From NCBI GenBank assembly GCA_000092065.1, contig CP000584.1: a stretch of 64,000 bases of DNA. The stretch is one strand, 5' to 3'. The stretch is from Ostreococcus lucimarinus (Eukaryota). The translations under genes and the position numbers were made by a program. The first letter of the stretch is position 1. Every line of letters starts with the position of its first letter. The notes under the pieces were generated by a model. The model worked only from the letters and a program-made list of their open reading frames with translations. It was not told the DNA's origin and ran no database searches. Below are positions 1,850 to 52,369 of the stretch, in pieces.

Positions 1850-2666
1850 ATGGCGAGCGTCGCGCCGCGCGCGCGATGCGGGACGATCAAGGTGCGCGAG
1901 TTCGCGCCTCGCGAGCTCGGACGGACGCGGCGTGGGCGCGCGCGGCGACGGCGCGCGACGACGTTTTGGATATCGGTTTAGATACGGCGCGAGTTCGAAC
2001 GAAGGATGCGCGCGCGTTTCGCGAACGGACGACTGACGAACGCGCCGAGCGCGCGCACAGACTATCGTGAACGCACCGACGAAGCGAGGCGCGCGAACGA
2101 CGACGCGCGCGAGTGGTAAGGGCGATGGGAAGGATCGGGTGTACATTGGCAAGGGACGTTACGTCGAAGACGACGCCAAGAAGTACGCTGGGCGCGATAA
2201 CTGGTTCACCGGCGGATGGCCGGGCGGAGAGAAGCAACTGAAGGAAGTTTTCATTCAAGAAGAAGCGGCTGCGGCCGCGCAGGCGGCGAAGGAGAGCGCG
2301 AAGAATGAGCTTCCAGAGTACGCCAAGGGCGACGATACTATTTACGTCGGCAAGGGTAAATACGTTAAAGGTGACGCGAAAAAGTTCGCAGGTCGCGATA
2401 ACTTGTTGACGGGCGGGTGGGCCGGTGGTGAGGTCGGACTGAAGGTTGGGGAGAAGCTGAAGATGAAGAAGGGTGATTTAGTCAAGGTGGCGGCGGGCGG
2501 CGGTTTCTTCGGCATGGGCGGTAAGCCCCAGCGCGTCGGCACCGTTCGCAAAGTGAACGTCAAGAAGAACGGCGATTGCACGATTGAAATCGCCGTGTTG
2601 CCGTTCGATCGCGTCGAAACCGTGGACAGTTCTCTGTGCACGCCGACCACACTGGAGGAAATGTAA
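1850..2666 (+). CDS. Conserved hypothetical protein with duplicated YxGKGxYV..DAKKxAGRDN..TGGWxGGE motif and C-terminal SH3/KOW-like segment (2 exons: 1850..1891, 2061..2666)
   Basis: Track ORF 2067..2666 starts at GTG and has no ATG. Exon 1 (ATG 1850, MASVAPRARCGTIK) ends before GTGCGCGAG and joins in phase 0 at CACAG|ACT (2061). The motif occurs twice (YIGKGRYVEDDAKKYAGRDNWFTGGWPGGE and YVGKGKYVKGDAKKFAGRDNLLTGGWAGGE). The N-terminus looks like a transit peptide. Confidence 0.7.
1892..2060 (+). other. Spliceosomal intron (GT-AG, 169 nt, phase 0)
   Basis: Donor is GTGCGCGAG at 1892. Branch-like GACGACTGACGAA lies about 24 nt before the CACAG acceptor ending at 2060. Splicing supplies the ATG that the downstream ORF lacks. 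Confidence 0.7.
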
Positions 2667-2760
2667 ACGCGTGAACGCTCGTTCTCGAATGACCGCGCCG
2701 CGACGACAGGAACCAGGGGTCTGACGCTCTCGTCCGAACTCGTCCTATCGCGAGTTTCGT

Positions 2761-2805
2761 TAATATTCAATACTTTAATATTCAATACTTTAATATTCAA
2801 TACAC
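2761..2805. repeat. AT-rich 15-bp tandem repeat x3 (TAATATTCAATACTT)
   Basis: The sequence reads taatattcaatactt taatattcaatactt taatattcaatacac. It is the only AT-rich microsatellite in the window and lies in the spacer between the 2666 stop and the 2889 ORF. Confidence 0.95.
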
Positions 2806-2888
2806 ACCGATACCGACACCACCGCGAACGATCGTACGCGTCGCCGCCGCAGCCGCCGCCTGCGCCGGTCCTCAGACGCCGGCGGTTC

Positions 2889-3266
2889 ATGCCCGCCGCC
2901 GCGCCACCGGCATCCCCTTCGACGCCGTCGGCGACGATATCTACCGCGCCCACGCACCCCGCCAACTGCTTGTGCTGCATCGGCGGCCCCGACCTGTCGT
3001 TCGAGCGCGCCGTCTTTTCCATCCTCGCATTGAAGTTGGGCTTTGAGTACGACACCGCGGCGAAGTTTATTCGTCTCTGCCGCGCCTCGCCTCGAATGGT
3101 GCTGAGTAAAGGCAAGTTTAAGGTCGCATCGAAGGTGCGAGGGAAAGATATCGACGCGCTGAGCGCGGAGGAGGTGCAGAGGGTGCAGGATGCGGTGCTA
3201 GGCGAGTACGCGGGGACGCTGGCGTTGGAAGAGAAGCAAAGAATCGACGCCGGTACGCGACGTTGA
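2889..3266 (+). CDS. Hypothetical 125-aa protein (no family recognised)
   Basis: ATG-initiated ORF. From residue 30 the composition is not Arg/Ala-biased (PDLSFERAVFSILALKLGFEYDTAAKFIRLCRASPRMVLSKGKFKV...LSAEEVQRVQDAVLGEY). The TGA lies 7 nt before the next gene's ATG. Coding status is unproven. Confidence 0.45.
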   Translation: MPAAAPPASPSTPSATISTAPTHPANCLCCIGGPDLSFERAVFSILALKLGFEYDTAAKFIRLCRASPRMVLSKGKFKVASKVRGKDIDALSAEEVQRVQDAVLGEYAGTLALEEKQRIDAGTRR

Positions 3267-3273
3267 CGTCGCG

Positions 3274-5865
3274 ATGGTGAACGCAGATGGACTACACACG
3301 GTGTGTGATTACGCACGATGGAGAGCGTGCGATCCCACGACGCGATTTCGCGAGGCGGTGCGATATTATGAAACGTTGAACGGCGCGCCGACGACGTTGC
3401 GCTTTGGCGAACTTGTCGACGAGGCGACGCGTTTGAGCGATTTTTTCGCGCCGTACGCGAAGTCAGCGGTACGTGACTCTCCGCCTTGTTGCGTGATCAC
3501 GCTTGAAGACGGCGTGGAAGTGTTCACATGCCAGTTGGCGGCGATGTTTGCAGGTATGGCGGTGTCACCGATGAGTACGCGAGATCCTGCAAAACGATTG
3601 GCGAGCGTCTTTGCAGACGCGGATGTCCGCATCGTGATCGTTCGTGATGGGGACGAGGCATTGAAGGTGGGCGAACTCACGAATGCGAAAGTTTTTACCG
3701 TCGAAGCGTTATTCAGGGCCCAACAACGATCAGCCACTGCGACCATCGCAGTAAAAGCCGACGACGCCTCGCACGTGTTTTTCACGAGTGGATCTACGGG
3801 GCGACCGAAGGGCTGCGTGGCTTCACACGCCGCGCTGTTGTCATACTGCGAAGCGAAGAACATTGCACATGAAATTGACGGTACAAGTGTTGTGTACTGT
3901 GCGAGCAGTCACATGTTTGACCCGCACTTTACGGATTTTTGCAGCGCCATCGTCGCCGGCTGTACGTTGACTTCAGCGTCGCGTGAAGTCACGTTCGCGC
4001 GACTCGGTGATGCTTTGCGAGTATCGAGCGCAACGCATTGTTTGACGACGCCTATTTTGCTCAGTTCGGTACGAGAAATTCCGAGTTTGAAATATTTGCG
4101 GCTCGTCGCGCTCGGCGGAGAAACGATGTCTAAATCGCTCGCGCAAGCTTGGCTCGATGCCGGCGTTCGAGTGGCAAACACATACGGCGTCACGGAATGT
4201 GTCGCGTATCAGACGTTCTGTGAGATAAAACAAGCGTCAAACGATGACTTGCGCACGTTGGGGGATCCACTTCCGGGTAATACATTCATATTTGCCGCCG
4301 ATCCCGGCGACGATCCGACGTTGACGGCGAAAGCGGGCGAGCTTGCAGAACTATGGATCGGCGGGCGCCAGGTCGGGAACGGATATTTGAACCGTCCTGA
4401 GCTCACATCGGCGCGTTTTAAAAATAATTTGTACCGAACGGGCGACATAGTTAAAGTTTCCTCCGACGGCCAGCACATTCTCGTCGGACGTCGCGACGAT
4501 CAAGTGAAGATAAGCGGTCAGCGCGTCGAGCTTGGAGAAGTTGAAGACGCGATTCGCCGTACGTGCAGCGCGTTCACACGTGAAGTGAAGTGTGTTCTGG
4601 CAAGTACAACAAAACAGCTCATCGCTTATTGCACTGGATCTTTCACGGACGTTGACACCGTGGTCACGGCGGCCATGCGATATGCCGTCGCCCGAGAGAT
4701 TCCTCAGCACATGGTTCCATCCATGTTTGTGTTTTTGGACGAGTTGCCGATGACGTCGACAGGAAAAGTTTCGCGCGCGGATTTGTCGCGGCGCGAAGTC
4801 GATGTGCGCGAGCAGGGATGCGCAATCAAGTTTGGTGAGTTTGGTGCGGATTTGGCACGAATATGGTCAGATGAGCTTGGTGTCGATGTAACGCACGGTG
4901 ATGCGGATTTCACAGCGAATGGTGGCGACTCGCTACGAGCGCTTAGAGTAGTTCAGCGAGTAAAAGCGCTCATCATAAAAGAAGACGTCGACGCTGGTGG
5001 TGGTACGTTCGGCGAAGCACTCGGGGCGTTTGCGCCCATCGAACTGTTACAGCGCTCACGGCTAAATGACTACGCGCGCTTTATTCGCGGCAGCGTCGAA
5101 GACTGGCCTTCAAGATATGCCACGGATTCAGACGCCGATGAAGCCGAGGCAACGCTCAGTGATATCGATATCGGCTTGCACGTATTGATTCGCGCATCAG
5201 CGGCAGGTCACGTGAGTTTGGTAAAGCTGCTCGTCGATGCAGGCGTTAGCGTCGATCCAAACTCACGCTCAACGCCGCTCCACGTGGCGTGCGCCAATGC
5301 GCGCGTCGAATGCGTGCGAGCGCTCCTTGATTCCGGTGCCTCCGTGAACGCGCTCGGTACTAGCAGAAGAACGCCGTTGATATTTGCCGTTTCTTCGCCG
5401 ATGTGTACATCTGAGCTCGTGAAGATTCTGTTGGGACGTGGCGCCGCGATTGGCGCAGTCGACGAGGACAAGCAAACTGTTTTGCACGCCGCGGCGCGGG
5501 TGGGCGCGGCGTCTTCGGTCATCGGCACCTTACTCGACGCGCAGTCTACTTCATCCGCGAAAGGTAAAGCGTCAAAAAAAGCGTTGATGTTGCACGTCAA
5601 CGCTCTCGATGTCTGGGGACGTACCGCCTTGCACTGGGCCTCGGTAAACGGCCATCGCAACGCGTGCAAATCGCTCCTCGAGCGAGACGTAGACGCATCG
5701 ATCAAAGATGTCAACGGCGAAACCGCGCGCGACATAGCCGAACGCCGCGCGCTGTGTAGCGCCCAGGAGCGCCCCAGAGGCGGTCGGCCGAGCACGTGGG
5801 GCGACATCGCCAACTTACTCGGCGGAAGCGGAGCTACGAAACACCTCAAAGCGTCTCTGGCGTAA
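3274..5865 (+). CDS. NRPS-like adenylation + thiolation (carrier) didomain protein with C-terminal ankyrin repeats
   Basis: AMP-binding core motifs are present: FTSGSTGRPKGC, TYGVTE, YRTGD and GKVSR. A phosphopantetheine-attachment motif (FTANGGDSLRALRV) follows. At least four ankyrin repeats come next (TPLHVACANARVECVRALLDSGASVN, RTPLIFA, QTVLHAAARVG, RTALHWASVNGHRNACKSLLERDVD). I saw no C, TE or R domain. Confidence 0.85.
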   Translation: MVNADGLHTVCDYARWRACDPTTRFREAVRYYETLNGAPTTLRFGELVDEATRLSDFFAPYAKSAVRDSPPCCVITLEDGVEVFTCQLAAMFAGMAVSPMSTRDPAKRLASVFADADVRIVIVRDGDEALKVGELTNAKVFTVEALFRAQQRSATATIAVKADDASHVFFTSGSTGRPKGCVASHAALLSYCEAKNIAHEIDGTSVVYCASSHMFDPHFTDFCSAIVAGCTLTSASREVTFARLGDALRVSSATHCLTTPILLSSVREIPSLKYLRLVALGGETMSKSLAQAWLDAGVRVANTYGVTECVAYQTFCEIKQASNDDLRTLGDPLPGNTFIFAADPGDDPTLTAKAGELAELWIGGRQVGNGYLNRPELTSARFKNNLYRTGDIVKVSSDGQHILVGRRDDQVKISGQRVELGEVEDAIRRTCSAFTREVKCVLASTTKQLIAYCTGSFTDVDTVVTAAMRYAVAREIPQHMVPSMFVFLDELPMTSTGKVSRADLSRREVDVREQGCAIKFGEFGADLARIWSDELGVDVTHGDADFTANGGDSLRALRVVQRVKALIIKEDVDAGGGTFGEALGAFAPIELLQRSRLNDYARFIRGSVEDWPSRYATDSDADEAEATLSDIDIGLHVLIRASAAGHVSLVKLLVDAGVSVDPNSRSTPLHVACANARVECVRALLDSGASVNALGTSRRTPLIFAVSSPMCTSELVKILLGRGAAIGAVDEDKQTVLHAAARVGAASSVIGTLLDAQSTSSAKGKASKKALMLHVNALDVWGRTALHWASVNGHRNACKSLLERDVDASIKDVNGETARDIAERRALCSAQERPRGGRPSTWGDIANLLGGSGATKHLKASLA

Positions 5866-5924: not shown

Positions 5925-6383
5925 CTACCATAACATATCATCATCCGCATCGTCTTCACCGTCCTCGATCCCCTCGCTCGTCGTCATCGCTCCGATCGCC
6001 CTCGCCGCGTGTTCCGCCGTCTCCGCGTCCGCCCCGCTCGTCGCCGCGAAGTACGCCGCGTTCCTCTTCTTCACCTCCCGCTTCGCCGCCTCCCCCAGCG
6101 CCTCTCGCGGGGCGTCGTCACCACTTCGACGCATCGCTCGCTGTCTCGCGCGCACCGCCTGCTTGTTCATCCGCTTCACGTCCAGCGCGTGTTTATTATT
6201 CGTGCGCTTTTTCGCCTTTTTCGCACCCGCGCCGCCGCCGCCGCCGCCGTCGCCGCCGCCGCCGCGCCGCGCCGTCGCCGTTCCCGCCGCGCCGCTCCCG
6301 AGCGACTCCAACGCGCGCGCGAGTTGATCCTTGAGCAATCGCCGCGACATGTCGTCCCGCGTCGCGTCGCGATGTCGCGCCAT
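5925..6383 (-). CDS. Small basic protein with Gly-rich tract, Lys/Arg-rich centre and acidic C-terminus (hypothetical)
   Basis: ATG at 6383, with an alternative ATG at 6350 (MSRRLLKDQ). The sequence reads KKAKKRTNNKHALDVKRMNKQAVRARQRAMRR...EDGEDDADDDMLW. Composition looks nuclear or nucleolar. No family was assigned by eye. Confidence 0.5.
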   Translation of the reverse strand: MARHRDATRDDMSRRLLKDQLARALESLGSGAAGTATARRGGGGDGGGGGGAGAKKAKKRTNNKHALDVKRMNKQAVRARQRAMRRSGDDAPREALGEAAKREVKKRNAAYFAATSGADAETAEHAARAIGAMTTSEGIEDGEDDADDDMLW

Positions 6384-6400: not shown

Positions 6401-7189
6401 ATGTCGCGCGACGCCGACGCCGACGCGAGCGACGCCGACGCCGACGCGAGCGACGCCGACGACGCGCCGCGCGGCGAGGACCTGTACGCGATCCTCGGCC
6501 TGCGCAAGGAGGCGAATCCGTCGGCGAAGGACATCAAGCGCGCGTACCATCGCAAAGCGCTCGAACTTCATCCCGATAAAAACGTCGGCGACGCGAGCGC
6601 GGCGGGAAAGTTTCAGACGCTGCAGCGCGTGTACGGCGTGCTGAGCGACGAGACGAAGCGACGGACGTACGACGCGACGGGAAGGGTGGAGGACGCGGAG
6701 TTGGGAGGGGAGGCGTTTCAAAATCTGTACGAATATTACCGCGGGGCGTATAAGGAGGTGTCGACGGAGGATATCGAGGCGTTCGAGCGGGAGTATCGGG
6801 GAAGCGAGGCGGAAAAACGAGATGTGCTGGAGCGCTACGCGAAGTACGAGGGAGACATGACGCGGGTGTTCGCGTGGGTGATGTGTAGCGAGGAGGCGGA
6901 CGATTCGCATCGATTCGCCGACGTCGTGGACGAAGCCGTGAGGGATGGACGCGCGGAGTCGTACGCGGTGTACGAGGCGTGGGCGCGAGAGGTGAGGAAA
7001 CGAAAGGCGCCGAAAGATCCGCTGGGGGCGCGGAAGGTGAAAAAGGGGACTAAGAAGGGTGGCGGCGACGACGCGGATTTGTTTGCGCTCATTCAACGCA
7101 AGAACGCGATGCGAGCGGATCAGGCGGATGATATGTTCGCCGCGCTCGAGGCAAAGTACGCGCCGAAGAAAAGAACGAAGAAGAACTAG
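6401..7189 (+). CDS. J-domain protein, DNAJC9-like
   Basis: The J domain is DLYAILGL...AYHRKALELHPDKN...FQTLQRVYGVLSD..KRRTYD. The rest is colinear with DNAJC9 (EDIEAFEREYRGSEAEKRDVLERYAKYEGDM, Lys-rich tail ...MFAALEAKYAPKKRTKKN). Confidence 0.85.
   Translation: MSRDADADASDADADASDADDAPRGEDLYAILGLRKEANPSAKDIKRAYHRKALELHPDKNVGDASAAGKFQTLQRVYGVLSDETKRRTYDATGRVEDAELGGEAFQNLYEYYRGAYKEVSTEDIEAFEREYRGSEAEKRDVLERYAKYEGDMTRVFAWVMCSEEADDSHRFADVVDEAVRDGRAESYAVYEAWAREVRKRKAPKDPLGARKVKKGTKKGGGDDADLFALIQRKNAMRADQADDMFAALEAKYAPKKRTKKN
6410..6463 (+). repeat. Coding 21-bp tandem repeat (GACGCCGACGCCGACGCGAGC x2.6), encoding (DADADAS)n
   Basis: Two perfect copies lie at 6410..6430 and 6431..6451, followed by a partial third. 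The repeat sits in the N-terminal acidic extension of the J protein. Confidence 0.9.
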
Positions 7190-48424: not shown

Positions 48425-50392
48425 ATGGACGGTCGGCGTCTCGCGCCGGCGGACGCGCGCGAGGCGCGCGAGACGGCGGACGCGCGCGAGACGGCGTGGA
48501 AGGTGGACGTGCGCGCGCTCGAGCGAGAGGCGCGTCGACGGCGCGCGACGGACGCGCGCGGAGGCGCGGACGCGGACGACGCGGACGCGGGCGACGACGG
48601 TGGGAAGGCGGGACGCGCGACGCCGTTGGCGGTGGTGTGTCAGGACGTGCGGTACGAGGTGAGGGATCGTAAGACGGGCGCGACGACGCGGTTGCTGGAC
48701 GACGTCAGCGCGGTGTTTCCTCCGGGGGGGGCGTCGGCGCTCATGGGTCCGTCGGGGGCGGGGAAGACGACGCTGCTGGACGTCATGAGCGGGAGGAAGA
48801 CGCAGGGACGCTTGCGCGGGCGCGTCGTCGTCGGTGCCGAGCCGGCGACGAAGGCGGCGTTGAAGACGTGCGCGGCGTACGTCGAGCAGTTTGATTGCTT
48901 GCTCGCGTCGTTGACGGTGCGAGAAACGTTGATGTATCAAGCCGAGTTAAAGCGAGGCGCGGAAGGTTTCGACGCCAAGGCGCGCGAGGAGCAAGTGAAT
49001 CGATTGATCGAAGACTTGCAGTTGGAAAAGTGCGCCGACGTCGTCGTCGGCAGCGCTTTGTCGCGAGGGATTTCCGGCGGGCAAGCAAAGCGCACGAACA
49101 TCGGCATAAGTTTGGTCACTCGTCCTCGTATTTTGTTCTTGGACGAGCCCACGAGCGGATTGGATTCGAAAACTTCGTACGATTTGATGCGAGTCATTCG
49201 AAAATTTTGCGACACCGCCGGAGTCACGGTCATCGCCACCATTCACTCGCCGAGCTCGGAGGCGTTTCGTCAATTCGATCGTCTGTTGATGCTGAAGAAT
49301 GGCAAAGTCACCTACGCGGGTCCATTATTCGGCGAAGAGGGCGCAGAGACGTACTTTTATTCGCTCGGGTTTTACTTTGATCCGAACGATAACTTTGCGG
49401 ATTTCTTAATCGCCACCGCGGGCGACGATTCGACGGATTTTGCCAGAGAGTTTACGGCGAGTTTTCATCACAAGCGTAATCGCGACGAAGTGCGCAAGTA
49501 CGTGCGAGAAGTGGTGAATCGGCGGGAAGCAGGCGACACGCGATCTCTGCTGCTCGCAAACGCCCCAAAACCTGTCGGTTTTGCGAGCGCCGTGCGCACG
49601 CTGTTAAAGTACCGCACGTCTCGAAATTACCGCGACGCGCAATTCGTCGGCGCGCGCTGCGCCGGGCACCTCATATTCGCCGCCGTCATGGCGACCATGT
49701 ACGCGGGCCAAGGAAAGGTCATGTCACTCGACGCCCAAATCAACGTCTCTAACATGCTGTTTATGAACAACGTCCTCCCCGCGTTCGCTGCGAGTGGATA
49801 CTTGCCTTCAATCTTGATGGAACGCCCACTTCTGTACCGCGAGCTCGACGACGGATGTTACCCACTCTTGGCGTACATCGCGTACAAAATCATCGAAGAA
49901 GCACTCGTGGCGCTCATTGTCTCACTCGTTGCGACTGCGATCTTATACAACGCCGCAGGTCTGCGAGGCAACTTCTTCGTCGATTGGCTCGCGTACTTTG
50001 GCATGCAACAATGCGGCGGCGCCGTCGCCTACCTCTGCGCCGCCGTCGCCCGCGACGTCGACGCCGCCAACGCCATCTTACCCGTGTACAACGTCCTTCA
50101 GGTCCTTTTCGCCGGTGTTTTACTCAACATCAACGACGTCCCGCGCGCTTGGACCTGGTGGCCACCGACGTTATTCGTTCGATACGGCTGGAAGGCGCAA
50201 ATGCTCAACCACTTCGCTCGCGTCGAGCCTCCCGTCTTTCTCGCCGACGACGGCTCCCTCGTCGGCGTCACCTCGTATTACGACGTCACCGGCACGACGT
50301 CGTCTAATCTCGGTTTCGTGTACTTGCTCTGGGCGTGTTGGCTCGTCGTCGCCGCCGTCTGCACCGCGAGCGTGCGCCACCAAAATCGTTAG
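48425..50392 (+). CDS. ABC transporter, G subfamily half-transporter (NBD-TMD, white/brown-complex type)
   Basis: Walker A is LMGPSGAGKTTLLDVMSG, the signature is ISGGQAKRTNIG and Walker B is ILFLDEPTSGLD. An H-loop (ATIHSPS) and a C-terminal ABC-2 type membrane domain follow. Confidence 0.9.
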   Translation: MDGRRLAPADAREARETADARETAWKVDVRALEREARRRRATDARGGADADDADAGDDGGKAGRATPLAVVCQDVRYEVRDRKTGATTRLLDDVSAVFPPGGASALMGPSGAGKTTLLDVMSGRKTQGRLRGRVVVGAEPATKAALKTCAAYVEQFDCLLASLTVRETLMYQAELKRGAEGFDAKAREEQVNRLIEDLQLEKCADVVVGSALSRGISGGQAKRTNIGISLVTRPRILFLDEPTSGLDSKTSYDLMRVIRKFCDTAGVTVIATIHSPSSEAFRQFDRLLMLKNGKVTYAGPLFGEEGAETYFYSLGFYFDPNDNFADFLIATAGDDSTDFAREFTASFHHKRNRDEVRKYVREVVNRREAGDTRSLLLANAPKPVGFASAVRTLLKYRTSRNYRDAQFVGARCAGHLIFAAVMATMYAGQGKVMSLDAQINVSNMLFMNNVLPAFAASGYLPSILMERPLLYRELDDGCYPLLAYIAYKIIEEALVALIVSLVATAILYNAAGLRGNFFVDWLAYFGMQQCGGAVAYLCAAVARDVDAANAILPVYNVLQVLFAGVLLNINDVPRAWTWWPPTLFVRYGWKAQMLNHFARVEPPVFLADDGSLVGVTSYYDVTGTTSSNLGFVYLLWACWLVVAAVCTASVRHQNR

Positions 50393-50398
50393 CGCCAA

Positions 50399-52369
50399 AT
50401 GCAAAGCCAAGTTGTCCCCAGTCCTCACCTCGCGAACATGCGATCGCGCGCGTCGCCGTCGTCGCGCGTCGCCGCACCGCGCGCGTCGGCGAAGCGCCAC
50501 CGCGACGTTCGACGCACCGACGCGCGCGCGTCGCGCGCGTCGGCGCCGGCGCCGCGCGACGACGATGAAGACGTCGACGCGTCGACGTTCGATGCGTCGA
50601 CGTTCGACGCGTCGCGTCGCGCGCTGCTCGCGCTCGCCGCGTCGACGACGACGGTGATGGTCGGTGCGGACGTCGCGCGCGCGTCGCCCGTGCGGGCGTC
50701 GATGCGGATGGCGGATCGAGGGCCGGTGGCGCGCGCGGCGCCGCGACCGCCGTGCGGGCCGGGATACGCGACGCTGCGCGACGCGGGAACGTATCGAGGA
50801 TTGGCCACGGTCGATCGCGAGGGACGCGGTCTGCGAGGGTTGTTGCCACCGAACGTCGTCGAGGACGACGTGGAGGTGCGCCGGGCGAGGGAAGCGCTCG
50901 GGCAGTGCGACGGCGCGTTCGAGTCGTACAAGCAGTTGGTGGCGCTGCAGACGACGGACGAGCGGACTTTTTATAAATTGTTGCGATCGGACACCGAGCG
51001 GTTGCTGCCGCTGTTGTACACGCCCACGGTCGGCGAGGCGTGTCTGAGATTCGGGACGCTGATACAACGACCGATGGGGGTGTGGGTAAGCTCGGACGAC
51101 GCGGGGAACGTGCGGGAATTGATGCGCAATTGGCCGCGCGACGACGTGAAAATCGCCGTGATCACGGATGGGGAGAGAATTTTAGGGCTCGGAGATCAAG
51201 GAGCGAACGGGATGGGAATTAGCGCGGGAAAGAGCATGGTGTACGCCGCATGTGGAGTGCCGCCGAGTGCGCTGTTGCCGATTCAGATTGACACCGGTAC
51301 AAACAACAAGACGTTGCTCGACGATCCGTTGTACATCGGGCTCAAACGCGAGCGCGACCGCTCCCAGGCCTACGACGCGCTCTTGGATGAAGTCGTCGTT
51401 TCGATTCGCGAGCGATTCGGTCCGAACACGATCATACACTGGGAAGACTTCGCGCCGAGGAACGCGTTCAGGGTATTGAAAAAGTATTACTCCGCGCCCG
51501 ATGTCGTGACGTACAATGACGACATCCAAGGCACCGCAGCGGTTACGGTGAGCGGGATATTGGCGTCGGTGCGAGCGCTAGAGAGAGGTGGTGACGTCAC
51601 TCAGCAGCGCGTATTGTTCTTTGGCGCTGGACAGGCGAATATCGGCGCCGCTGAACTCTTCGTCCTCGCGTTGACGAAGCGCGGCGTCGCGGAAGCCGAC
51701 GCTAGGAAACGGGTGTGGCTGTTTGATTCAAAAGGCCTCGTCGTGCGCTCGCGCGCGTCGCAGCTGAGTGATGACAAATTGCCTTTTGCACAAGACGCGA
51801 GGGAGGAAACTGACCTCGCATCAGCGATCGAAAGCATCAAGCCGACGGTGTTGGTCGGCGCCGCCGCGGTGCCCGGGGCGTTTACTCAAAAAGTCGTCAA
51901 GTCGATGAGCAAACTCAACGACCAACCGATCATTTTCGCGCTCTCCAACCCGACGTCCAAGGCTGAGTGCACCGCCGAGCAGGCGTACGCGTGGAGCAAC
52001 GGCCGAGCGATATTCGCGAGCGGCACCCGATTTCCGCCGGTGCGATTCTCGGCTGAAAAGACGTTCGCCCCCGGATTCGCCAACAACGCCTTCATCTTCC
52101 CACCCATCGCCCTCGCCACCATCGTCAGCGGCGCGAAACAAGTCACTCCAGACATGTTTCTCACCGCCGCCGAAGCCTTGGCCGAATCCGTCGACGCCAA
52201 CCTCTTCGCCGTCGGCGCCGTCTACCCGCCCGTCGATCGCATCGCCTCCTCCGCCGTCGCCGTCGCCGCGCGCGTCGCTCGCGCCGTCGACCCATCCATC
52301 GATCTCGACACCTGGCGCGCCCGCGTCCAGGACTACATCGCATCCAACGATTTATTCGATAGCCTGTAA
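50399..52369 (+). CDS. NAD(P)-dependent malic enzyme with ~110-aa N-terminal extension
   Basis: Malic enzyme core: LLYTPTVGEACLRFG, AVITDGERILGLGDQGANGMGISAGK and the NAD(P)-binding FFGAGQANIGAAEL. ATG at 50399, with alternatives at 50438 (MRSRAS) and about 50704 (MRMADRG). The gene starts 6 nt after the ABCG stop. Confidence 0.9.
   Translation: MQSQVVPSPHLANMRSRASPSSRVAAPRASAKRHRDVRRTDARASRASAPAPRDDDEDVDASTFDASTFDASRRALLALAASTTTVMVGADVARASPVRASMRMADRGPVARAAPRPPCGPGYATLRDAGTYRGLATVDREGRGLRGLLPPNVVEDDVEVRRAREALGQCDGAFESYKQLVALQTTDERTFYKLLRSDTERLLPLLYTPTVGEACLRFGTLIQRPMGVWVSSDDAGNVRELMRNWPRDDVKIAVITDGERILGLGDQGANGMGISAGKSMVYAACGVPPSALLPIQIDTGTNNKTLLDDPLYIGLKRERDRSQAYDALLDEVVVSIRERFGPNTIIHWEDFAPRNAFRVLKKYYSAPDVVTYNDDIQGTAAVTVSGILASVRALERGGDVTQQRVLFFGAGQANIGAAELFVLALTKRGVAEADARKRVWLFDSKGLVVRSRASQLSDDKLPFAQDAREETDLASAIESIKPTVLVGAAAVPGAFTQKVVKSMSKLNDQPIIFALSNPTSKAECTAEQAYAWSNGRAIFASGTRFPPVRFSAEKTFAPGFANNAFIFPPIALATIVSGAKQVTPDMFLTAAEALAESVDANLFAVGAVYPPVDRIASSAVAVAARVARAVDPSIDLDTWRARVQDYIASNDLFDSL

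Follow-up and report, generated by a model that had tools for sequence, protein, structure and literature searches.

A short conserved gene abutting an NRPS-like gene in Ostreococcus lucimarinus: a candidate bicistronic nuclear locus of the Mamiellales

In a 64-kb stretch of the Ostreococcus lucimarinus genome (contig CP000584.1, here called the window; positions are numbered within it and refer to the plus strand unless stated otherwise) a 125-codon open reading frame (ORF1) closes seven nucleotides (nt) before the start codon of an 863-codon frame (ORF2), which lies on the same strand in a different frame and encodes an adenylation-carrier-ankyrin protein resembling the nonribosomal peptide synthetases (NRPS-like). 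Comparison with related loci indicates that ORF1 is a protein gene in its own right and that its tight junction with ORF2 has been kept across the Mamiellales. Probably the two ORFs share one mRNA, by whatever mechanism ORF2 is then translated. It is a more tentative proposal, with belief and doubt close to balance, that ORF2 is reached on such a bicistronic mRNA mainly by leaky scanning, aided by a mini-ORF that lies within ORF1. A dicistronic mRNA was one of the explanations put forward in a first-pass annotation of this DNA, and it is the best supported of them, on evidence that is comparative and drawn from sequence context. The coordinates given there for both starts, the ORF1 stop and the spacer cgtcgcg proved exact (Table 1).

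In the route proposed a nuclear bicistronic mRNA would have its 5' end in the 222 nt that separate ORF1 from the gene before it, and ORF1 would be translated from a deliberately weak start (TTCAUGC). Some scanning 40S subunits would pass this start and also the internal AUG of Met70, both having a pyrimidine at −3, and those initiating at the out-of-frame AUG 3190, which is in good context, would end three codons on at a conserved UAG and could resume scanning. The scanning ribosomes would next initiate at the AUG of ORF2, whose context is the consensus (GCGAUGG), and the start context of ORF1 would set the ratio of both proteins. Within this scheme the shared transcript, leaky scanning and the role of the mini-ORF are inferences, as would be any functional partnership between the products of ORF1 and ORF2.

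Bicistronic nuclear loci are known in Chlamydomonas reinhardtii, Chromochloris zofingiensis and Auxenochlorella protothecoides, in keeping with the remark in the first-pass annotation that polycistronic transcripts have been reported in chlorophyte algae (PMC7896298, PMC11291117). Such loci have a short first ORF, a short or overlapping inter-ORF region and a weak Kozak-like context at the first start; mutagenesis supports leaky scanning, and the context of the first start has been shown experimentally to set the protein ratio (PMC7896298, PMC11291117). The bicistronic reading is favoured here because the anatomy of the O. lucimarinus locus matches that of these published examples. Two independent ORFs lie on the same strand in unrelated relative frames and with colinearity conserved across species, the first ORF is short (378 nt, against reported medians of 291–600 nt), very little DNA separates the ORFs (in Auxenochlorella the median distance is 40 nt, and at some loci stop and start overlap), the first start is in weak context and upstream AUGs are few, if not significantly so. 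The locus differs from the published ones in being known from sequence alone, in having a Bathycoccus-like counterpart whose ORF1 is not AUG-poor, and in belonging to a genome so compact (same-strand gaps are typically 100–350 nt) that closeness of two ORFs tells less than it would in Chlamydomonas. The Mamiellophyceae (O. lucimarinus and M. pusilla) entered the earlier work only as colinearity targets for Chlamydomonas-defined loci (PMC7896298, PMC11291117). The accessible part of the supplementary tables of the published algal sets holds no ankyrin or AMP-binding entry, and a literature search returned neither a report of the ORF1-ORF2 pair nor long-read transcript evidence from Mamiellophyceae for the locus. 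The pair can be regarded as a further candidate among the known green-algal bicistronic loci.

The length of ORF1 is on its own no proof of a gene, because long ORFs abound in GC-rich sequence: the GC content here is about 59% and the first 12 kb hold 43 ORFs of at least 80 amino acids. An antisense ORF of 324 codons (2342–3316) overlaps the same DNA. A word-indexed protein search found ORF1 homologues of 116–127 amino acids, 58–89% identical, in many marine metagenome contigs, and pairwise Nei-Gojobori comparison of six Ostreococcus lineages gave ratios of nonsynonymous to synonymous divergence (dN/dS) of 0.19–0.29, with dS saturated at values of at least 1. The homologue search and selection test that the first-pass annotation had suggested for the 125-residue peptide thus return conservation in related lineages and purifying selection. 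The sense frame is intact in all 13 of the lineages examined, and the codon score of ORF1 is one that accepted genes also show. Among 1.8 billion representatives a profile search recovered 35 cluster representatives at E<1e-3, including EMIHUDRAFT_200284 of Emiliania huxleyi, an annotated family member that stands alone among unrelated neighbours. The family core reads C-x-C-C-[IV]-G-x-P-D-x-x-F-E ... A-E-K-F-V-R-L-C ... M-x-L-S-K-x-K-x-K. Residues 1–21 of the O. lucimarinus protein are variable and the conserved domain runs from about residue 22 (THPANCLCCIGGPD), which bears out a filler-like, low-complexity N-terminus ahead of the protein-like centre and C-terminus noted earlier. An AlphaFold2 model made with the family alignment has a mean confidence (predicted local distance difference test) of 85.8 and comprises a disordered N-terminus and four helices. 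The sequence found no match in Pfam, NCBIfam or the PDB, and in the databases searched the Mamiellophyceae members are at most called 'hypothetical protein', with neither an NCBI nor a UniRef accession listed.

Given purifying selection, a family that by profile similarity reaches the haptophytes and a confident predicted fold, ORF1 is on sequence criteria a true protein-coding gene of a conserved, uncharacterised family. The suggestion that the small ORF is not coding is contradicted by each of these three lines, and the label 'long uORF' (upstream ORF) undersells a conserved protein whose gene stands by itself in E. huxleyi, although the dicistronic mRNA that came with that label is the part that holds up best. 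Nor does ORF1 look like a regulatory uORF acting independently of its peptide, as the peptide is constrained and has a stand-alone homologue. The antisense ORF was considered as a gene and rejected, its open frame not being kept across lineages.

Three side observations concern the family itself. One member (P0060) has a weak C-terminal Med26/TFIIS-N-like domain (E=0.005), another longer one, apparently P0056 by sequence, has a weak N-terminal TFIIB-type zinc ribbon (E=0.058), and in E. huxleyi the gene next upstream of the homologue, on the same strand, encodes a DHHC palmitoyltransferase; these are weak hints as to the role of the CxCC motif.

It is very improbable that ORF1 lacks independence altogether, whether as a non-coding shadow ORF, as a purely regulatory uORF or as an extension of ORF2 (a 5' exon, or a part joined to it through readthrough or frameshifting). 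GC-rich sequence often contains shadow ORFs, but the dN/dS values were obtained at saturated dS, the family and its fold speak for a protein, and the antisense ORF is broken in three lineages (L001, L034 and L005) in which the sense frame persists. As for an extension of ORF2, the two ORFs are in frame with one another across the stop in L001 and L005 and in-frame GT-AG pairs exist; however an intron search showed the pairs in each lineage to be chance candidates with no position conserved, and in six Ostreococcus lineages ORF2 lies in frame 1, 0, 1, 0, 2 and 1 with respect to ORF1. The stops closing ORF1 are present in all lineages, and in some of them the ORFs overlap, by ATGA or by 17–23 nt. 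A gene-fusion (Rosetta stone) search of about 60 adenylation-carrier-ankyrin homologues found the ORF1 domain in none, and every protein with that domain has at most 328 amino acids. Since the frame varies, the ORFs overlap in places and a fused homologue is absent from this set, the sequences lend no support to splicing, readthrough, frameshifting or one gene wrongly split in two, and the unrecognised splicing offered earlier as an explanation of the locus is disfavoured with them.

The identity of ORF2 is clearer. Pfam assigns it an AMP-binding domain (PF00501, 3e-41), a weak PP-binding match and clear ankyrin repeats; the PP-binding score (PF00550) is 19.9 bits in the window protein against a cut-off of 20.8, and reaches 28.4 bits in orthologues. 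In NCBIfam it scores best against TIGR01733, an amino-acid adenylation domain, with 250.8 bits where the cut-off is 317.4. From these domain matches ORF2 is an adenylation-thiolation protein, for which the 'NRPS-like' of the first-pass annotation is a fair label. The protein is strongly conserved across homologues, which together with the purifying selection on ORF1 serves as a proxy for translation of both ORFs, and its AUG always lies 2–9 codons ahead of the first conserved motif, TVCD[YH]A. The same architecture was seen at 30–40% identity in the chytrids Spizellomyces, Geranomyces and Chytriomyces and in Balamuthia mandrillaris, and a homologue in the dinoflagellate Prorocentrum cordatum, a partial product, has AMP-binding and PP-binding domains recorded only.

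In every Mamiellales-type locus recovered the adenylation-carrier-ankyrin gene lies directly 3' of ORF1, and the pair is colinear in about eight Ostreococcus lineages, one Bathycoccus-like and four Micromonas-like ones. The distance from the ORF1 stop to the ORF2 start is between −23 and +46 nt in all lineages but one (122 nt), whereas other same-strand neighbours in the related loci stand 67–471 nt apart. Within Ostreococcus the junction takes the forms TGA+7, TGA+6, TGA+8 (possibly a TGATG overlap), TAG+24–27, ATGA, and an ORF2 AUG 14 nt before the ORF1 stop, so that the junction sequence itself turns over between lineages while the proximity stays. Comparison of these loci shows a tight ORF1-ORF2 junction conserved across the Mamiellales. 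In the window too the 7-nt gap is an outlier among the gaps between same-strand coding sequences, on a crude ORF-based gene set: the gaps are 6, 7, 104, 145, 153, 161, 181, 193, 222, 269, 314, 347, 361, 540, 794 and 843 nt, such that 14 of the 15 other pairs are separated by 104–843 nt and the remaining one, an unrelated pair, by 6 nt. The pairing persists through a change of upstream neighbour, which is a GST gene on the minus strand in the Ostreococcus and Bathycoccus-like loci and G6PD in the Micromonas-like ones.

A second line of evidence comes from the start codons. The local start consensus is GCG ATG, with a purine at −3 in 21 of 25 long window genes and 37 of 45 neighbouring genes from five lineages (about 82%). 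The context of the ORF1 start is weak for this genome, and its −3 position is T or C in 11 of 11 lineages, as compared with about 18% of other genes, with flanks that are otherwise unconserved; the ORF2 start in the window is a consensus GCGATGG. Only two ATGs lie between both starts in the window, that of Met70, the sole internal in-frame AUG of ORF1, and the out-of-frame ATG at 3190 that opens the mini-ORF. One or two ATGs, counted in any frame, occupy this interval in 10 of 11 lineages, and the ATG density of ORF1 is 5.3 per kb where the median of window genes is about 12.5 per kb. The TAG of the mini-ORF (3199–3201) is formed where CTA, a rare leucine codon used for Leu104, precedes a G. 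Each Ostreococcus lineage has CTA or TTA and then G at this place, although synonymous sites elsewhere have diverged to saturation; CTA and TTA together make up 13% of the leucine codons here. The pattern ATG-NNN-NNN-TAG is found in all Ostreococcus lineages but one (the exception being L001/L002). Closure of the mini-ORF is offered as a candidate explanation of this codon conservation. Reinitiation after a short uORF is familiar from uORF1 of GCN4. The mini-ORF is similar in having three codons (AUG-NNN-NNN-UAG) in good context some 70 nt upstream of the ORF2 AUG, a size and spacing with which scanning can be resumed efficiently, and dissimilar in sitting inside the coding sequence of another protein, in being confined to Ostreococcus and in owing its proposed function solely to conservation of a rare leucine codon.

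Several observations weigh against one mRNA read by leaky scanning. In certain lineages, L001 and L005 among them, ORF2 has a pyrimidine at −3. Depletion of ATGs in ORF1 is not significant under either recoding or Poisson nulls: out-of-frame ATGs number 1 where about 2 are expected (P~0.3), ordinary genes giving similar ratios on synonymous recoding, and internal methionines number 1 where about 3 are expected (P~0.2). The Bathycoccus-like ORF1 has six internal in-frame AUGs, because of which pure leaky scanning is hard to envisage at that locus. Adjacency as such is weak evidence, since local synteny is kept in general, for instance with DnaJ and WD40 genes downstream. Lastly the genome evidently tolerates expression signals inside neighbouring coding sequence: the genes of an ABCG-type half-transporter and a malic enzyme follow one another on the same strand 6 nt apart, or at most 45 nt apart if the second in-frame ATG of the malic enzyme is used, and the start codons of a divergent pair, 5925–6383 (minus strand) and 6401–7189 (plus strand), are 17 nt apart (cgcgtcgcgATG / gcgcgcgcgATG), such that their leaders or promoters must overlap each other or neighbouring coding sequence. 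The ABCG and malic enzyme genes are unrelated and both full-size, the ABCG one having 655 amino acids and 16 ATGs, and no scanning mechanism could serve them; the pair may be a further polycistron candidate or a sign of start sites inside upstream genes.

From these last two cases it is plausible that the transcription start site (TSS) of ORF2 is internal to ORF1. The two genes would then be overlapping monocistronic units produced by compaction, with the TSS and core promoter of ORF2 in the 3' part of ORF1 and ORF1 polyadenylated inside ORF2, and no co-regulation would be needed. This we consider unlikely, if the most serious of the alternatives. The first-pass argument is right that 7 nt leave no room for a separate promoter, but it does not extend to a promoter or TSS inside ORF1. 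The CpG-rich leader of ORF2 (...cgcgATG) resembles that of ordinary genes, and the mini-ORF would suit a leader beginning within ORF1 just as well, there acting as a classical uORF. What internal initiation leaves unexplained is the weak ORF1 start in all 11 lineages, and also the persistence in three genera of a stop and start within about 50 nt despite full turnover of the junction, when neighbours elsewhere keep the wider spacing given above. The last 60 nt of ORF1 show no block of synonymous-site conservation that might suggest an embedded promoter. There is likewise no TGTAA within 200 nt past the ORF1 stop, a weak point because most genes are without one: in the ORF-based set 10 of 34 window genes have the motif no more than 120 nt past the stop (1.4 expected), and in two it overlaps the stop. 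TGTAA is a candidate 3'-end signal in this genome, as are CTAGA and TCTAG, which were seen to be similarly enriched in 3' flanks. A comparison of base composition gave no AT-rich promoter signature, upstream regions being no more AT-rich than coding sequence, and this test was without power.

A different use of the bicistronic mRNA would be termination-coupled reinitiation, in which ribosomes that have completed ORF1 restart at the nearby ORF2 AUG. Of the features of the junction, only the nearness of stop and start is shared by all lineages. The overlaps (ATGA, possibly TGATG) and the starts 11–23 nt before the stop are classic termination-reinitiation geometries, and the mechanism would suit the Bathycoccus-like ORF1 with its six internal AUGs too. 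Against this, reinitiation after ORFs of 116–158 codons is as a rule very inefficient unless a dedicated element assists it, and no conserved structure or motif precedes the junction, where folding z-scores are about 0 in most lineages and synonymous sites vary freely. Nor does reinitiation predict the conserved weak start of ORF1, and in other green algae mutagenesis argued against it (PMC11291117). Overall it seems an improbable main route to ORF2, and leaky scanning is preferred.

Calicivirus and influenza B termination-reinitiation depends on a termination upstream ribosomal binding site (TURBS). The present junction resembles the viral ones in that the stop of a long upstream ORF is overlapped by the next start (ATGA, possibly TGATG) or lies within a few nt of it, and differs from them in being cellular and in that no conserved upstream motif or structure was found. 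A search of the junction for conserved RNA structure, or for an element like an internal ribosome entry site or a TURBS, found none, and there was no Rfam match. In O. lucimarinus the 7-nt spacer and the 7 nt ending 1 nt before the ORF1 stop are exact reverse complements, and a hairpin can form with the stop in its loop. The hairpin is lineage-specific (z about −2) and is not kept in other lineages; the Bathycoccus-like spacer is unstructured. In a close variant (L027) an A in the 5' arm is replaced by G, a G-U pair still being possible.

How the two proteins might work together can be considered only by analogy. On a stronger form of the bicistronic proposal the pair would be an ancient Mamiellales-wide two-gene operon, with the CxCC protein an obligate partner of ORF2 and the stoichiometry hard-wired by one mRNA through the weak first AUG and, in Ostreococcus, the ribosome-recycling mini-ORF. 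We hold this to be doubtful, and to name the partner a regulatory subunit, a chaperone subunit, a membrane adaptor or one that binds metal is speculation. A parallel that suggests itself is that of the MbtH-like proteins (PF03621), where a small protein gene also adjoins an adenylation-domain gene and where pairing is kept across genera. ORF1 differs in lacking any sequence match to them, in its all-helical predicted fold and in its stand-alone homologues. As a candidate MbtH-like protein it was rejected, Pfam scans of ORF1 and of 26 family members having given no PF03621 match, and an MbtH-style partner or chaperone function is likewise speculative.

Confirmation would make this a bicistronic locus that was recognised in the Mamiellophyceae themselves and is kept in Ostreococcus, Bathycoccus and Micromonas, and polycistronic translation would extend to the most compact free-living eukaryotic genomes, in which short spacing has until now been taken simply as compaction. 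The ORF1 proteins make up a conserved family without a match in Pfam, NCBIfam or solved structures, and genomic coupling gives the first functional lead, pointing to an NRPS-like enzyme family common to chytrids, Balamuthia and dinoflagellates. ORF1 is also an instance of a gene that eukaryotic gene finders may skip. Ostreococcus can be engineered by homologous recombination, and the locus may offer a natural short inter-ORF design for two-gene expression there.

Table 1. Features of the ORF1-ORF2 locus, comparison genes in the window and junctions in related lineages (nt, nucleotides; aa, amino acids; negative distances are overlaps)
Feature	Position	Strand	Description
Upstream gene	2067-2666	+	199/215-aa 'predicted protein', corresponds to XP_001417288.1
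Intergenic region 5' of ORF1	2667-2888	+	222 nt; presumed to supply promoter and 5' leader for an ORF1 (or ORF1-ORF2) mRNA
ORF1 start context	2886-2892	+	TTC ATG C, pyrimidine at −3
ORF1	2889-3266	+	125 codons; ATG 2889, TGA 3264-3266
Met70	3096-3098	+	CGA ATG G, C at −3
Mini-ORF	3190-3201	+	ATG CGG TGC TAG, 3 codons, +1 frame (the ORF2 frame in the window), A at −3
Hairpin	3256-3273	+	CGCGACG-TTGA-CGTCGCG; ORF1 stop in loop, 3' arm is the entire 7-nt spacer
ORF1 stop and spacer	3264-3273	+	TGA, then 7 nt cgtcgcg
ORF2	3274-5865	+	863 codons; ATG 3274, +1 frame relative to ORF1
ABCG-type half-transporter	48425-50392	+	655 aa, 16 ATGs
Malic enzyme	50399-52369	+	first ATG 6 nt after the ABCG stop; second in-frame ATG 50438
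ORF1 protein			variable N-terminus (residues 1-21), CxCC[IV]GxPDxxFE motif, then predicted four-helix domain
Junction, Ostreococcus lineages (L001-L008, L024-L045)			−17 to +27 nt
Junction, Bathycoccus-like (L046)			gap 46 nt
Junction, Micromonas-like (L047)			gap 20 nt to first ATG
Junction, Micromonas-like (L048)			37 nt, or 11-nt overlap
Junction, Micromonas-like (L023)			23-nt overlap
Junction, Micromonas-like (L019)			122 nt, spacer without ATG in any frame

Some minor features were seen on the 5' side of the locus. The region upstream of ORF1, which is presumed to hold the promoter and leader, has no ATG from 2806 to 2888. At 2760–2803, in otherwise GC-rich surroundings, it contains a perfect tandem repeat of TTAATATTCAATACT in 2.9 copies; the repeat unit is the most AT-rich 12-mer among the 200-nt stretches upstream of window gene starts, and it may be a promoter element or a 3'-end element of the upstream gene. 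The protein of that gene (XP_001417288.1) has an internal duplication (YIGKGRYVEDDAKKYAGRDNWFTGGWPGGE / YVGKGKYVKGDAKKFAGRDNLLTGGWAGGE), the stop codon of the gene overlaps a TGTAA motif, and the gene is missing from one Ostreococcus lineage (L004). The 90%-identity protein cluster of P0001, which holds the 125-residue ORF1 product, has the unrelated 199-residue upstream protein as its representative, an artefact presumably due to a fused gene call that bridges the two.

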